64,000 bases of DNA from Escherichia phage FEC14: the sequence record MG383452. One strand, written 5' to 3'. The notes below the pieces were generated by a model that was given only the letters and a program-made list of their open reading frames with translations, searched no databases and was not told the DNA's origin. Numbering within the stretch: the stretch's first letter is position 1; every line of letters starts with the position of its first letter. Below are positions 15,337-63,591 of this stretch, piece by piece. The position numbers and the translations under genes are program-made.

Positions 15337-15633
15337 ATGAAAGAGCAAGAAATTATCCAGCATTGTATTCGCTTAGGAACATTAAAACCTCTCTATCAGG
15401 CTTTGCGTTTCAATGCCATTAAATTCAAACCTTTACCAAGAACTATTGCAACGTTCTTTGCCATGCGTTCTGTTGGAAAAACGATTTTCTTTGAGCATGA
15501 CATTTATTTTTATACAAAGATTAATGGCGAAGATTTAGATAAAATGATTTTCGTGAACGACGATAAAAATATGAAGATAAAAGTGGAAAACGAATTGCGC
15601 AGGATAAATGATTCTTTAAGAGGAATATTTTAA
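15337..15633 (+). CDS. hypothetical protein
   Basis: 98-aa ORF. Confidence 0.45.
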   Translation: MKEQEIIQHCIRLGTLKPLYQALRFNAIKFKPLPRTIATFFAMRSVGKTIFFEHDIYFYTKINGEDLDKMIFVNDDKNMKIKVENELRRINDSLRGIF

Positions 15634-16295
15634 TGGAAATTGTTGTCTCAGTATCTGATTGTGATTTTGTATACCGTGTTCTTCAAGGGGATGCTCCATT
15701 GCCGCAGAATAATCAAGAAGTGACGTTGTTCTGGTCTGGTGGGGTGGATAGCACATACATGTTGATTTGGTTGTTATCGAAAGGATATTCAGTTCATACT
15801 GTGTATTGCCACCTCGAAAATAATAAATTTAAATCTAAGCGCGAAAATTGGGCGAGGAATAAAATACACAACTGGATTAATAAAAATGCCCCACTTCTCA
15901 TGTATCGTTGGACACATCATCAAGAACCTATCAGTAGCATCAACGTCCCGAACGGTGGTTTTCGCGCTTGTTTAGCACAAGCCCCGATATGGTTATTAAA
16001 CACGCAATTTAAAGGCAGTGGCTTGCCTTCCACGTATATCTTGGCATATGTTAACGGCGATGACGCAATACACTGGATACCCGCCTTTAATAAAGTCATT
16101 GAAGGGTACAACATGATGACCAGAGACGGGGAAAGACCTATTGAAATTTTATATCCATTGATTAGTCTCAAGAAATCTTGGTTCTATCATCACATGTCCC
16201 CAATACATGACTTAATGACATGGTGTGAATTGCCAATTTTGAAAAAGAATTGTGATTGCCCTGCGTGTGTTCGACATCGCCATGAGTTATCATAG
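15633..16295 (+). CDS. PP-loop ATPase, QueC-like (7-cyano-7-deazaguanine synthase family)
   Basis: PP-loop 'SGGVDS' and a C-terminal 'CDCPACVRHR' cysteine cluster resembling the QueC zinc site; about 220 aa. The N-terminus is ~35 aa longer than canonical QueC, so the start is uncertain. Confidence 0.5.
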   Translation: MEIVVSVSDCDFVYRVLQGDAPLPQNNQEVTLFWSGGVDSTYMLIWLLSKGYSVHTVYCHLENNKFKSKRENWARNKIHNWINKNAPLLMYRWTHHQEPISSINVPNGGFRACLAQAPIWLLNTQFKGSGLPSTYILAYVNGDDAIHWIPAFNKVIEGYNMMTRDGERPIEILYPLISLKKSWFYHHMSPIHDLMTWCELPILKKNCDCPACVRHRHELS

Positions 16296-16297
16296 AG

Positions 16298-16639
16298 ATG
16301 AAATGTTCGGTTGTTGTAAATGACATCACGAGATTGATAAATCTTATCAAAGACGTCTTCCCACAACAGGTGGATGTTGAGTATGTTGGGAAGAACGGAA
16401 AGTGCTATCAGGTTGCTCTGGTTCTGAAGCATGTGTATCCTCAAGCAGAGATCCATTACAGTCAGATCGAAGGTCATGTGTATACTCTGATTGACGGACA
16501 TTACTACGACATCGAAGGCATCCACTTCAGTGTCCCACCAGACACGTGTTTGCTCGAACATAATAGAGGTCACAAACCGCATCGTTGGCATAAAGGGTTT
16601 GTGGACGTGCCGATTTTAGAATGGCTGAGGAAACCATAA
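16298..16639 (+). CDS. hypothetical protein (His-rich)
   Basis: 113-aa ORF. Confidence 0.45.
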
Positions 16640-17222
16640 TGGCGGGAATTGTAAAGCACCTTGGTGACACTCATCTTGGGCATAAGAAGGTCTTTAAACC
16701 GCGTGGATTTGATACACAGGAAGCCCATGACGCTGCGGTCATTGACAGTATCTTTCAGGGGTTGAAGTCTCGGGACGTTCTTGAACTGGCTGGTGATATA
16801 TGCTTCATCGGGGCTGAAGGGTTCATTCGCCTGATGCGGGAGGGTGCCAAGCGAAACATTGATGAGTTTAAGCGACGCCCCGTTCCCGATGACTGGCGTC
16901 CGAACTTTATCATCAAGGTGGCACAAGGCAACCATGACAGCTTTAAGATGTTGTTGTCTCTGTATCTGGACGGCTGGATTAGCTCCTTCGGCGCTATGTA
17001 TGAACGTGACACGCCTGTTGGCCGTGTGTTGACACGCCTGTTGGCCGTGTGTTGACAACACATGTTCCTTATCAATTAGACCGTTGGGCGTATAATATCC
17101 ATGGTCATCTTCACGAAAATATTCGCGAAGAGCGCGAATACCTGAACTGCAGTTGGGAACAATTCAAGCGTCCTGTAACCCTGGCTGAGTTGTTATACAC
17201 AAATTTAGGAATTGTATTATGA
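16639..17222 (+). pseudogene. calcineurin-like metallophosphoesterase, frameshifted by a 23-bp tandem duplication
   Basis: N-terminal part carries 'GDTHLGH', 'GDICF', 'GNHD' motifs and stops at 17053-17055. The 'HGHLHE' motif continues in another frame to a TGA at 17220-17222. Removing one 23-bp copy restores a single ~192-aa ORF. Confidence 0.75.
17008..17053 (+). repeat. perfect 23-bp tandem direct duplication (2 copies) inside the metallophosphoesterase gene
   Basis: 'gacacgcctgttggccgtgtgtt' twice in tandem, followed by a partial 'gaca'. Two track ORFs end in the same 'TRLLAVC*' with stops exactly 23 nt apart (17032, 17055). Confidence 0.9.
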
Positions 17223-17551
17223 AAATATTCTTTCCTGGTCAGAAAGTACCCGAAGAAATAGAAAAGGTCGAGTTATTTGGTTATAAAAGCGGTGATCCGT
17301 TCCTGCGATTTTCTTCACCATGTATCGTGAAGCGCAATCATGAAGGGTATTATGTGCGCCCAATCATTCTCATGGGTTCTATCATGACGCTGAGAGCCAA
17401 AACAGACTCCGTCGTTATTACCGGAAGTCCTAACATACCCAATGGGAAGACCACGCTCAATGGAAAGCCTATCCTGTCGTCTTGGGCGTTAATTGGATTT
17501 CTGTCTATAATCTTGTTTTATCGTTACCTTACCGACTTGGGGATCTTATGA
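17219..17551 (+). CDS. hypothetical protein
   Basis: 110-aa ORF. Confidence 0.45.
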   Translation: MKIFFPGQKVPEEIEKVELFGYKSGDPFLRFSSPCIVKRNHEGYYVRPIILMGSIMTLRAKTDSVVITGSPNIPNGKTTLNGKPILSSWALIGFLSIILFYRYLTDLGIL

Positions 17552-17898
17552 AAAAGCCACGCATCACAGGACATCAACTCTGCGTCCTTTTAGGAATGTT
17601 GAATTTTGAAAAAGGTGAAGCCAGACGCCTTTGTCATTGGTATTTCAATCCCAAATCTTGGACGAACGATAAAGGGAAAACGGTTTGGACTTTTCATGCG
17701 CCACCGATATCTGGCGGGTTTCGTTCTGTAAAGGGTGATCCATGGGATACGCGTTCAGGTCAATCCTTGTTGTCTAAAGGTCTGATCGAACCTGCGTTTA
17801 CAATGGTTCATGACAACTCTGAAGAGTATAAGCATTGGCCGAAGTCTGAAGTAACATTCTATAGACTTACAGACCTCGGTAAAGCATGTACTGAATAA
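17548..17898 (+). CDS. hypothetical protein
   Basis: ORF; internal ATG (MKKPRITGH...) overlaps the upstream stop. Confidence 0.45.
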   Translation: MKKPRITGHQLCVLLGMLNFEKGEARRLCHWYFNPKSWTNDKGKTVWTFHAPPISGGFRSVKGDPWDTRSGQSLLSKGLIEPAFTMVHDNSEEYKHWPKSEVTFYRLTDLGKACTE

Positions 17899-31919: not shown

Positions 31920-31970
31920 GGTTAAATGATAGCCGCAAGTTTTATTGAAGTAAAGTTTTATTGAAGTAAA
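31920..31970 (-). promoter_or_regulatory. putative T4-early-type promoter with duplicated -35 region (coordinates approximate)
   Basis: Minus strand reads 'CTTTACTTCAATAAAAC' x2, then 17 nt, then 'TATCAT', upstream of the 30689..31882 gene. Confidence 0.4.
31938..31969 (-). repeat. perfect 16-bp tandem direct repeat (2 copies)
   Basis: 'agttttattgaagtaa' twice in tandem, directly abutting the hairpin 'aaagcccaacaaatgttgggcttt' (31967-31990). Confidence 0.85.
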
Positions 31971-31999
31971 GCCCAACAAATGTTGGGCTTTAACCGATA

Positions 32000-60167: not shown

Positions 60168-60773
60168 ATGAAAACTTTTCAAGACTTTTTGACCGAAGCC
60201 GCGCCGCCGATGTCTGTTCATATCAAGGCAGACAAGATCGGCAAATCCACCGAAGACAATATCGGTACTTTCTTGCGAGTTAGTGTTAGTGGCGACAAAG
60301 CCACCTTTGAAACCCCTGATGGTCGTAAGATAATCCTGACGGGTGCCAGAGACATCATTTCCGCATCTGGTCTGAAAGATGGACAGTTTGCCAGTGCCCA
60401 GATGATTGACAAGGTTGATACTGACACCGCTGTCAAGTACAACAAATCAGGCAAATATATTGACTTGTTGGATGTCAAATCAGGTATGGGCAATTCCTTT
60501 ATCTCCATTGACGGCAACAAGCAATGGAAAGAAATGACTGAAGGTGGTTGGTATGCGTATAAAGGCGGTCGCCCCGGCTTGGCTCGTTATAAGATCGCCA
60601 TGGTTATGGGACCTCATGCGGGTATGCCATCTCCTGGGGAAGATATTGAATACGAGTTACCGAATGGCGGCAAAGAACGCGGAACCGTCATGAAACTGAA
60701 TGGTGCATCCAAGCTGATGGACGTCAAAAACGAAAAAGGTAAGAAAGTACAAGTCAGTATGTATGTGAAATAA
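60168..60773 (+). CDS. protein with capsid-targeting-sequence-like N-terminus (candidate internal head protein)
   Basis: N-terminus 'MKTFQDFLTEA' closely resembles the T4 CTS 'MKTYQEFIAEA'; 201 aa. Confidence 0.55.
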   Translation: MKTFQDFLTEAAPPMSVHIKADKIGKSTEDNIGTFLRVSVSGDKATFETPDGRKIILTGARDIISASGLKDGQFASAQMIDKVDTDTAVKYNKSGKYIDLLDVKSGMGNSFISIDGNKQWKEMTEGGWYAYKGGRPGLARYKIAMVMGPHAGMPSPGEDIEYELPNGGKERGTVMKLNGASKLMDVKNEKGKKVQVSMYVK

Positions 60774-60775
60774 CA

Positions 60776-60798
60776 AAACCCCGCGAAAGCGGGGTTTC
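60776..60798. terminator. bidirectional rho-independent terminator
   Basis: 'aaaaccccgcgaaagcggggttt' followed by 'cttttat', between convergent genes. Confidence 0.6.
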
Positions 60799-60800
60799 TT

Positions 60801-61040
60801 TTATGGCTTGACCAGAGTCATCTTGACGGTTTCACCCGTGTCGGTGTCTGTCAGGGTCATGACGTCTTGTGCGTTCACAGACTTCACTTTCCCCTGCCGC
60901 TTGTCGCCGTTGCGGTTGTAGTAGTCGATCAGTTCGCCTTTGGTTGGGCGGCCAACATCGGTGATGTCATACTGACCGCGCTTCCCCAGCGCCCGATGGT
61001 CTGTTGCTTCCTTCAGCAGGAAGTCCTGGAACCCTTTCAT
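60801..61040 (-). CDS. small protein with capsid-targeting-sequence-like N-terminus
   Basis: N-terminus 'MKGFQDFLLKEA'; 79 aa. Confidence 0.5.
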   Translation of the reverse strand: MKGFQDFLLKEATDHRALGKRGQYDITDVGRPTKGELIDYYNRNGDKRQGKVKSVNAQDVMTLTDTDTGETVKMTLVKP

Positions 61041-61048
61041 ACATCCCC

Positions 61049-61618
61049 CTAGACAGGCTTAACGCCGAGGAACTTGGCGATATCAGCAGCCAGGTTTTTA
61101 CCCTTGCTGATGTCCTGCTCTTTGCCGTTGCAGGTGACGATCACATATGGGTCGTCTTCGCCGCCGAAGTTCACGGTGATCGCCTTGCCGATGCCTGGGA
61201 TACCAGAGTATTCGAACTCAGTGCGACCACTTTTGCGGGACTTGCCAACACCCAGTGCTTTACCGATCATCTTGTCCATGTTCGCCAGTTCCTGAGCATA
61301 GGCTTCGGTCACCTGGCCTTTGTCAGCAGACTTGCCAAAGAAGAATTCGAAACCGTCATGGACAGCAACGACTTCCTGACCTTGGGAGATACCGTGAGTC
61401 TGGTCTGGGGTTAGTTTGACTTTTGCTGTGTTACCGTCAGTGAGTTCCAGGTTGTAGACATCCGCCTGATTGTCAGGGGTGATCTGGGTGATGACAGCTC
61501 CAGAGCACCACAATGTTCCATCAGCTTGGCTTTTGATGGATATACTCTTGCCCTGGATGCCAGCATGGGTCTGAGGCTGAGCGGCTTGTTCTTTGAAATA
61601 TTGAAGGAACGGTTTCAT
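61049..61618 (-). CDS. protein with CTS-like N-terminus (candidate internal head protein)
   Basis: N-terminus 'MKPFLQYFKEQA'; 189 aa. Confidence 0.45.
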   Translation of the reverse strand: MKPFLQYFKEQAAQPQTHAGIQGKSISIKSQADGTLWCSGAVITQITPDNQADVYNLELTDGNTAKVKLTPDQTHGISQGQEVVAVHDGFEFFFGKSADKGQVTEAYAQELANMDKMIGKALGVGKSRKSGRTEFEYSGIPGIGKAITVNFGGEDDPYVIVTCNGKEQDISKGKNLAADIAKFLGVKPV

Positions 61619-61649
61619 CTTAATCTCCTCGGGGATTTCAGTTATTTAT

Positions 61650-61667
61650 AAGCCCCCGAAGGGGCTT
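61650..61667 (-). terminator. rho-independent terminator
   Basis: 'aagcccccgaaggggctt', 8 nt past the stop of the 638-aa gene. Confidence 0.55.
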
Positions 61668-61674
61668 TCGATGA

Positions 61675-63591
61675 TCAGATCTTAATCTGCATATTGCCGC
61701 CCAGGGACTGCTCGTACTCGCTGTACGCGCTTTCCCCGTTGCTTGCAGCCCATTCGTCAGACTGCTGAGCGCGAGACAGAGTCATCAGGTTTGGTTCAGT
61801 CGGGTTGTATCCCTTGGACTTAGCATCCTGGTACAGAGTCTGCAGGTACTGGTTAGCGCGATCGATTTGAGCCTTGAACTCGCGATATGCACCTTCGGTT
61901 GTGTTACGACGGAAGGTGATATCCCAGTCCACGTTCAGAGTCTGACCATCACGGCTTGCATAGATCTGCCAATCCAGGTCGCGACCTTTTGGAGCGTTGT
62001 CGCGGATGGAGCCTGCATATGTTGCCAGGTCTACACCAGTCTTTTTAGCGGTCGCTAAAACCAAGGGTGCCAAGCGATCAATAGCGGTTTGCACTATTGC
62101 GGTCAGTTTGGACGGTTTGGTGATGTCGATGTCTCGGATGACGATAGGCTGGCCGATGGTCTTCCCATTCGGTCCATATTCGGTAATTGCTTTGACAGTC
62201 AGCACAATAGGATCACTTCCTTTGGTGATACCACGGTTGATCGTCGCTGTTACAGCCCCTTTCGCGCCAAAAGAGACACTACCGGAGGCCATCGTAGAAG
62301 AAGACACACCACGAAGTTCATTTACTTTGTAGAATGCGTTCACCAGAGCACGCCAGCGGTCTGTTGTGAGTTCGGCTGCCGTGGTTTGAGCAGGAGCCAC
62401 AGCCCCAACGCCAAATTCAACATAAGCCACAATCTTGCCACCCGACTTCAGTTCCCAACCCATACCCTGACGGTCAGAAGCCGCCATGAGTTTACGATCC
62501 ACTTCCCCACGACCAACATATTCTTTGTTGAATACGGTCACCTGAGCGATAGATTGGGAGCGGGCAATCTTCGCCATTGCGCCATCTTTGACCATGATGG
62601 CCAGATCATTGGAACTCAGAGTCACGTCGTTGGCACCGACTACCTTCACAACAGAACTGAAGATGCCGTTGGATTTCGCCATGACGGAAATGTTCCAGTC
62701 AGGGTTGGCATCACTGGTCGGGAAGTTAATTTCACGCCAGTCTTTGACGCGTTGGTTGAAATTATTGAGCAGATCCGAAGGAGGAACAGGAACACCAAAT
62801 TCACGACAAATATCTTCTACGGTCGGTTCTACCACCTGCTTTCTACCGTTCTGACCAACGAGGACATCGGCCTCACTCAGGCTTGGGGTAATGTCCAAGT
62901 CAAATGTGCCACGCTGATAATAGTTGATGCGAGGAGGCTGACCGATCTTACCACGCCATGACCAGGTTGCGGGATTGTTGGTAGTAGCGCCAACATTAGT
63001 GTCTTGAGTATCGTTCTGAACCGGAACGTCGCCGACCTTGTCTGGATCATCCCATGTGACACCTTTCATTTTCGGACCATCGAATACCTGAGCAGGATCC
63101 TTACCTTTACGCACAACCCATACGAATGCACGATCAGGGATAGGGGTATACGTCAGGTCCATGACATTGAGCTTCTGCTTCAGGCCGGACTGACGGATGA
63201 TCTTCGGCAGGAGGGTAACACCACGTTCCAATGCTTTCTTGGAGAAGTTAATTGCAAAGCCGTCAATGGTTTTCCCCAAAGGCGTCGCCATGAATTGCTT
63301 TGTTGCTTCGATCATGGATGCGATGACACGCATTGGGTTTTTGAAACGACCGATTGCGTCTGGATAGGTCGAACCACGTTTCTGGCCTATGAAGACCTGA
63401 CGAACGTTCTTGCCCAGCCCCTGCGGGGTATAAAATTGGATGCGGAATTCTTTTTCGTCTTCATCAACAAATGTGAAGAAAATGTCACCAGCGTTCTTCT
63501 TACCGAATGTCAATTCATACGGGGATGAGTTAAACGCTTCGTCTAATTGTTTAGACTCTTCAAGAAAGTTCAAGAAAGATGGGATGGCCAT
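61675..63591 (-). CDS. large protein with CTS-like N-terminus (candidate packaged protein, Alt-like size)
   Basis: 638 aa; N-terminus 'MAIPSFLNFLEES' has the hydrophobic-x-Glu pattern of gp21-cleaved CTS. No catalytic motif identified. Confidence 0.45.
   Translation of the reverse strand: MAIPSFLNFLEESKQLDEAFNSSPYELTFGKKNAGDIFFTFVDEDEKEFRIQFYTPQGLGKNVRQVFIGQKRGSTYPDAIGRFKNPMRVIASMIEATKQFMATPLGKTIDGFAINFSKKALERGVTLLPKIIRQSGLKQKLNVMDLTYTPIPDRAFVWVVRKGKDPAQVFDGPKMKGVTWDDPDKVGDVPVQNDTQDTNVGATTNNPATWSWRGKIGQPPRINYYQRGTFDLDITPSLSEADVLVGQNGRKQVVEPTVEDICREFGVPVPPSDLLNNFNQRVKDWREINFPTSDANPDWNISVMAKSNGIFSSVVKVVGANDVTLSSNDLAIMVKDGAMAKIARSQSIAQVTVFNKEYVGRGEVDRKLMAASDRQGMGWELKSGGKIVAYVEFGVGAVAPAQTTAAELTTDRWRALVNAFYKVNELRGVSSSTMASGSVSFGAKGAVTATINRGITKGSDPIVLTVKAITEYGPNGKTIGQPIVIRDIDITKPSKLTAIVQTAIDRLAPLVLATAKKTGVDLATYAGSIRDNAPKGRDLDWQIYASRDGQTLNVDWDITFRRNTTEGAYREFKAQIDRANQYLQTLYQDAKSKGYNPTEPNLMTLSRAQQSDEWAASNGESAYSEYEQSLGGNMQIKI

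Follow-up and report, generated by a model that had tools for sequence, protein, structure and literature searches.

In the 64-kb window analyzed here, a 64,000-nucleotide stretch of the Escherichia phage FEC14 genome (MG383452) in whose coordinates all positions are given, a metallophosphoesterase gene is broken by a perfect 23-bp tandem duplication. The conserved accessory gene probably lost its function recently and in this isolate only, through slippage during replication, and the resulting allele can revert but is very unlikely to be a programmed switch. The 23-mer GACACGCCTGTTGGCCGTGTGTT occupies 17008 to 17030 and recurs without a single difference at 17031 to 17053. The perfect back-to-back duplication claimed for 17008 to 17053 was thus borne out both by direct positions and by Tandem Repeats Finder (17007 to 17057, period 23, 2.2 copies, 100% match, score 102). 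The period-23 identity reaches T17007 on one side and GACA at 17054 to 17057 on the other, giving a 5-bp direct repeat, TGACA, at the unit ends (17007 to 17011, 17030 to 17034, and 17053 to 17057); the flanking microhomology had been described as gaca, which is present, but its true length is 5 bp and not 4. Features of the locus are listed in Table 1.

Table 1. Coordinates of the duplication and of the genes and gene fragments around it
Feature	Coordinates	Strand	Description
Perfect tandem array	17007..17057	.	Period 23, 2.2 copies
Truncated metallophosphoesterase ORF	16639..17055	+	138 aa; native residues 1 to 132, then RLLAVC and a stop
Motifs kept in the truncated ORF	16639..17055	+	GDTHLGH (D10, H12), GDICF (D53), GNHD (N98, H99)
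Premature TGA	17053..17055	+	Inside copy 2; in frame through the +23-nt shift
Out-of-frame C-terminal remnant	17049..17222	+	-1 frame; native residues 130 to 186; native stop TGA at 17220 to 17222
Downstream gene	17219..17551	+	Cba120 orf034 ortholog; L004 ortholog matches Pfam DUF7618

Only two perfect tandem duplications with a period of at least 12 exist in the 64-kb window, the 23-mer being one. The other, AAGTTTTATTGAAGTA, is intergenic (31937 to 31971, period 16, 2.2 copies) and is directly followed by a terminator-like hairpin, AAGCCCAACAAATGTTGGGCTT, which extends up to ~31990. Its 35-mer is found unchanged in Salmonella phage SFP10 at 31915; this repeat is therefore conserved, unlike the 23-mer, and may be regulatory.

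The broken locus is the ortholog of Cba120 orf033 and SFP10 SFP_0025, encoding a protein of 186 aa annotated as a "putative serine/threonine protein phosphatase." Its start codon, ATG 16639, lies 7 nt downstream of a Shine-Dalgarno sequence (GAGGA, 16627 to 16631), shares bases with the TAA that ends the preceding gene, and is the start annotated for Cba120 and SFP10, and MAGIV begins all homologs; this evidence favors it over ATG 16621, from which the 192-aa version would be read. The frame opened at 16639 is normal through residue 132 (...GRVLT), and the C-terminal remnant carries motif IV (TTHVP, with H134) and HGHLHE (H147, H149, and H151) in residues MLTTHVPYQ...HGHLHE.... The stop at 17053 to 17055 and the remnant in the -1 frame uphold the claim that a frameshift splits the gene, and on re-inspection the downstream frame does contain HGHLHE and does continue to the stop at 17220 to 17222. 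Removal of one copy in silico restores a single 561-nt ORF whose protein matches those of SFP10, allotria, and LPEK22 at 100% identity; the original prediction was right that deleting one copy leaves an uninterrupted frame, whereas the length it gave, about 192 aa, should read 186 aa.

The ATG of the downstream gene overlaps the native phosphoesterase stop (ATGA, 17219 to 17222), and this gene has an AGGA of its own at 17207 to 17210. Since termination in the two-copy allele is moved 164 nt upstream, translational coupling to the downstream gene may weaken, and its loss is possible. On the other side, the genes at 15633 to 16295 and 16298 to 16639 are annotated in Cba120 and SFP10 as hypothetical proteins only. 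For the former, the L005 ortholog has a faint QueC match in Pfam, and the window protein contains an SGGxDS-type motif (WSGGVDSTY); for the latter, the L005 ortholog is Phage_YunG-like in Pfam. Two minus-strand ORFs called mechanically, 16570 to 17061 and 16755 to 17075, were rejected, as nothing supports them independently and they overlap the conserved gene on the plus strand.

The protein belongs to the metallophosphoesterases by several lines of evidence. It matched PHROG 547, "phosphoesterase," at an E value of 2.5e-42, and an alignment of 13 family members with 51 to 95% identity keeps D10, H12, D53, N98, H99, H134, H147, H149, and H151 without exception. These D, H, and N residues are the predicted canonical metal-ligand positions in canonical order. 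Motif I (D10-x-H12), motif II (G52-D53), and motif III (G97-N98-H99-D100) follow each other in the order of the superfamily, and all three lie upstream of the duplication and are therefore retained in the truncated product, whereas the C-terminal histidine ligands H134, H147, H149, and H151 are present in the repaired ORF but out of frame past the stop in the window. The motifs had been given in slightly different form: GNHD stands upstream of the duplication as stated, but motif I is GDTHLGH (GDxHxG) instead of GDxHG, and motif II is GDICF, with GD only, instead of GDxxD.

Direct searches were largely silent. The repaired, truncated, and remnant proteins had no Metallophos match in Pfam even at E values up to 1, NCBIfam returned nothing beyond a PdeM hit below threshold (E = 0.0019; 17.7 bits versus a cutoff of 150), and the PDB sequence search found nothing significant with the single sequence and E = 0.034 to 1xm7 with a profile. 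The family assignment consequently rests on PHROGs, transitive Pfam matches, and the fold. A profile search of 1.84 billion representatives collected 2,155 relatives at E values of 1e-3 or lower, and among 10 distant members reached through the family profile, 9 score above the cutoff of Pfam PF00149 (21.5 bits); homologs occur in T5-like phages at ~28% identity. An AlphaFold2 model, made from the 95%-identical ortholog P0001 and not from the repaired window protein, has a two-sheet beta-sandwich fold (pLDDT 90.4, pTM 0.88). Its best Foldseek match in the PDB is 1xm7 (E = 1.3e-6, TM-score 0.59), followed by MJ0936 (1s3l), LpxH, GpdQ, Mre11, and Vps29, and almost all of the top 50 are metallophosphoesterases. 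The protein is thus predicted to adopt the calcineurin-like metallophosphoesterase fold with PDB 1xm7 nearest, and PHROG 547, PF00149 on the distant members, and the modeled fold together sustain the metallophosphoesterase assignment of the original prediction. It shares its fold, a length of ~165 to 195 aa, and the order of metal-ligand motifs with 1xm7, an Aquifex aeolicus protein of unknown function, and with the MJ0936 phosphodiesterase, but identity to them is ~19%, and the phage family differs in having a long helical insert at residues 59 to 78 and conserved DRW and NxSWEQ motifs.

The annotated name of the gene is a separate matter. Bacteriophage lambda Ser/Thr phosphatase, a PPP enzyme, belongs to the same superfamily and has the DxH, GD, and GNH[DE] motifs; it differs from the phage protein studied here in motif II, GDxVDRG instead of GDICF, and this protein has no direct Pfam Metallophos match. 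A PPP-type Ser/Thr protein phosphatase was rejected on the basis of motif I (GDTHLGH), motif II (GDICF), and the lack of DRG, and neither PPP nor lambda phosphatase appeared in the sequence matches or in the top 50 fold matches. The evidence gives no support to the "Ser/Thr phosphatase" label, and "putative serine/threonine protein phosphatase" likely originated from lambda phosphatase. The literature collection searched contained nothing on this phosphoesterase gene in Kuttervirus or Cba120.

In the P0001 model, the truncation falls within core beta-strand 128 to 133 of the beta-sandwich, right before H134. The 138-aa product lacks the final third of the beta-sandwich, losing H134, H147, H149, and H151, the last two strands, and two helices, and the missing histidines include the C-terminal metal ligands. 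Without these ligands, the product would be catalytically dead and is almost certainly inactive, which would make the two-copy gene a null allele and the gene dispensable under the conditions of isolation and propagation. This suggests that the phage can form plaques on its isolation host without a conserved Kuttervirus phosphoesterase.

Could the two-copy gene nevertheless still work? A functional protein might be made by -1 ribosomal frameshifting within the repeat, with an 8-aa insertion, or by reinitiation, with fragments 1 to 132 and 130 to 186 assembling afterward. The layout has some features of this kind, since the downstream frame is the -1 frame relative to the upstream one and is open from ~17010, and GTG 17049 and TTG 17052 overlap the new TGA (GTG-TTG-A, 17049 to 17055) in the manner of translationally coupled genes. 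However, 16960 to 17056 lacks both an X XXY YYZ slippery heptamer and any homopolymer of at least 5 nt, for which programmed -1 frameshifting was rejected; no Shine-Dalgarno-like motif precedes the two restart codons; and the break lies in a modeled core strand that adjoins ligand H134. Together with the finding of this arrangement in no other genome, these observations make continued function extremely improbable.

Kuttervirus genomes (Ackermannviridae; Cba120, SFP10, PhaxI, and others), from a well-known group of Salmonella and E. coli phages, are collinear with the window over their first ~63.5 kb. Among the 50,697 genomes of the phage collection, none is identical to the window. Identity to SFP10, the closest relative over the first 25 kb, is 98.5% across 1 to 60081 of the window. 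Nine gap openings separate the two genomes over ~60 kb, among which the 23-bp one is the sole frameshifting indel; all others are intergenic, in frame, or compensated, and the harmlessness of these remaining eight to reading frames indicates that the assembly is otherwise clean. One compensated case is a pair of +1 and -1 indels 11 nt apart (50339 and 50350) inside the SFP_0073 ortholog, where ~3 residues are changed; it may be a real pair or an error in one of the records. Beyond 60081, collinearity with SFP10 is lost up to 63006, with no alignment or 77% identity (61302 to 62046). The equivalent part of SFP10 (60711 to 63092) encodes the large hypothetical protein SFP_0088, and the stretch looks like a mosaic or replaced segment within an otherwise 98.5%-identical genome. 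Closer to the phosphoesterase gene, several Kutterviruses, among them PhiSH19 (JN126049), ST-W77 (KX765865), and 3384-D8 (OP828573), match 16300 to 17600 in two pieces spanning 1,646 or 1,727 bp versus 1,278 bp, and carry near the gene an additional insertion of ~368 or ~449 bp annotated as a hypothetical protein.

All phage records that match the site with a junction-spanning query (130 of 130) hold the 28-bp single-copy version, and the best relatives align with 16300 to 17600 over 1,278 bp, which is 1,301 minus 23. The single-copy versions that the original prediction had proposed looking for in related phages were therefore found in abundance, with intact 186-aa ORFs. Conversely, searches of IMG/VR, JGI metagenomes, and GTDB genomes for the 24-mer across the two-copy junction found no occurrence, and exact look-up of the 138-aa and 144-aa truncated products in an index of 153 billion genes retrieved none on record. 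Homologs are encoded in 523 phage records, nearly full length in one place in 514 of them, and all 60 evenly sampled homolog rows are a single unbroken match. Besides the 23 nt, the gene differs by two substitutions from Cba120 and by two from SFP10, with no secondary decay. Compared with the diverged L005 lineage, 79 synonymous and 16 nonsynonymous differences give a dN/dS of about 0.025, and by this measure the gene family is under strong purifying selection across the genus. Because the two-copy state was found nowhere else and its copies are identical, we infer that the allele arose recently and is restricted to this genome.

A few contigs hold this gene in other damaged forms. L004 (Logan ERR10643166, 108 to 500) and L005 (Logan SRR31712300, 1500 to 1892) have independent 1-nt deletions, each leading to a 130-aa frameshifted product, and hold the 23-mer in single copy; P0004, an ENA contig, has a 15-aa in-frame deletion. 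Each lesion comes from a single short contig and may be a sequencing error or a real loss, so that together they at most point to tolerance of gene loss.

How might a bacteriophage gene acquire an exact second copy of 23 nt? The single-copy sequence TGACA-CGCCTGTTGGCCGTGTGT-TGACA (28 bp, TGACA-N18-TGACA) is present in SFP10, Cba120, and the Logan contigs L004 and L005. The ancestor would accordingly have had two TGACA pentamers with starts 23 nt apart. During replication, a nascent strand ending in the second TGACA may have re-paired with the first, and 23 nt would then have been copied twice; replication slippage or template switching would be the source of this microhomology-mediated tandem duplication. 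The added 23 nt shift the frame and bring it to a stop at the TGA in the second copy, and the tandem duplication could collapse back to one copy. Over all possible 23-bp duplications in the reconstructed single-copy window, only 0.44% are bounded by a direct repeat of at least 5 bp (P = 0.0044), indicating that the endpoints are not arbitrary. With this ancestral microhomology, undiverged copies, and no secondary decay, the option of a recent slipped-strand duplication that inactivated the gene, one of three that the original prediction had left side by side, is favored. The hairpin of the unit is imperfect and modestly stable (-8.2 kcal/mol, z = -1.7), offering no strong structural reason for preference of this site, and a hairpin-driven hotspot was rejected on account of this unremarkable fold. 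The TGACA pair is 1 of 40 microhomology pairs of at least 5 bp in the gene, and nothing marks the site as designed.

The same endpoints bear on the possibility that the duplication exists in the deposited record only, the real phage having one copy and an intact gene. Such an error could have entered as an untrimmed k-mer overlap when a circular contig was re-oriented, or as a primer-length join that was doubled in finishing; a k-mer or a primer could well be 23 nt long, none of the collections searched holds a second instance of the two-copy state, and the gene is otherwise perfectly intact and under purifying selection. An arbitrary join, however, would rarely be bounded by so long a direct repeat, whereas the endpoints observed fall exactly on the ancestral TGACA...TGACA. 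The site is also mid-gene, ~17 kb from the start of the record, in a window where other frameshifting indels relative to SFP10 are absent. An assembly or editing artifact is therefore considered unlikely.

A replication slip in a lytic phage has precedents. Streisinger reportedly described slipped-strand frameshift and duplication mutants of phage T4, in the rII and lysozyme genes, which were selected in the laboratory and had their reversion measured. The allele described here likewise concerns a lytic phage of Enterobacteria, one with replication proteins of its own (topoisomerase II, primase-helicase, and UvsX), and a spontaneous, frame-shifting duplication between short direct repeats. In contrast to the T4 mutants, it comes from a deposited genome and is known by its sequence alone. 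Microhomology-mediated tandem duplications are a documented class of mutations that cause frameshifts and revert readily and precisely (Dan et al., PNAS 2021, PMC8639346), with forward and reversion rates of ~8e-7 and ~1e-4 in Schizosaccharomyces pombe; that work used S. pombe, with some E. coli data, and not phage. The 23-bp duplication resembles this class in being exact, in ending on a short direct repeat of the wild type, and in inactivating a gene by frameshift, and reversion to the exact wild type would be expected here. Unlike the mutations of Dan et al., it is a single fixed instance in one consensus sequence.

Another intriguing question is whether reversibility of this kind is put to use. 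In an adaptive on/off switch, the phosphoesterase would be silenced with a benefit on some hosts, for example by escape from a defense that senses the enzyme or its product, or by shedding of a cost on the laboratory host, and would be regained through frequent collapse of the repeat. In S. pombe, the reversion rate of this class of duplications exceeds the forward rate ~100-fold (PMC8639346), and the disrupted alleles of L004, L005, and P0004 hint that gene loss is tolerated or sometimes favored. Those alleles, however, are different and nonreversible lesions in single short contigs with possible sequencing errors, and the TGACA site is one of many ordinary microhomology pairs in the gene, with no conserved repeat tract. 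Neither the two-copy state nor a longer array is present in any of the more than 130 relatives or in any metagenome searched, for which the on/off switch, also among the options of the original prediction, is without support and is regarded as very unlikely. Phase-variable contingency loci have many copies of units of 1 to 7 nt in conserved tracts, with copy numbers that vary between strains. The phosphoesterase gene resembles them in that a change in repeat copy number shifts it in or out of frame, but its 23-nt unit is doubled in a single genome and occurs once in every other. As a slippage-made loss-of-function allele, the duplication is an ordinary recent copying-slip mutation, a fresh instance of a well-known kind of mutation and no new biological system.

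For annotation and quality control of the record, the ORFs 16639 to 17055 and 17049 to 17222 should be read as one broken gene. With a length difference of 23 bp, the one-copy and two-copy alleles can easily be told apart by PCR, and the locus is a possible marker for measuring how often slippage and reversion occur in an Ackermannviridae phage. If the allele were a selected, reversible knockout, it would exemplify, in nature and in a lytic phage, the use of a microhomology-mediated tandem duplication as a contingency mechanism. The two-copy phage would provide a natural knockout for studying an uncharacterized and widespread phage enzyme.
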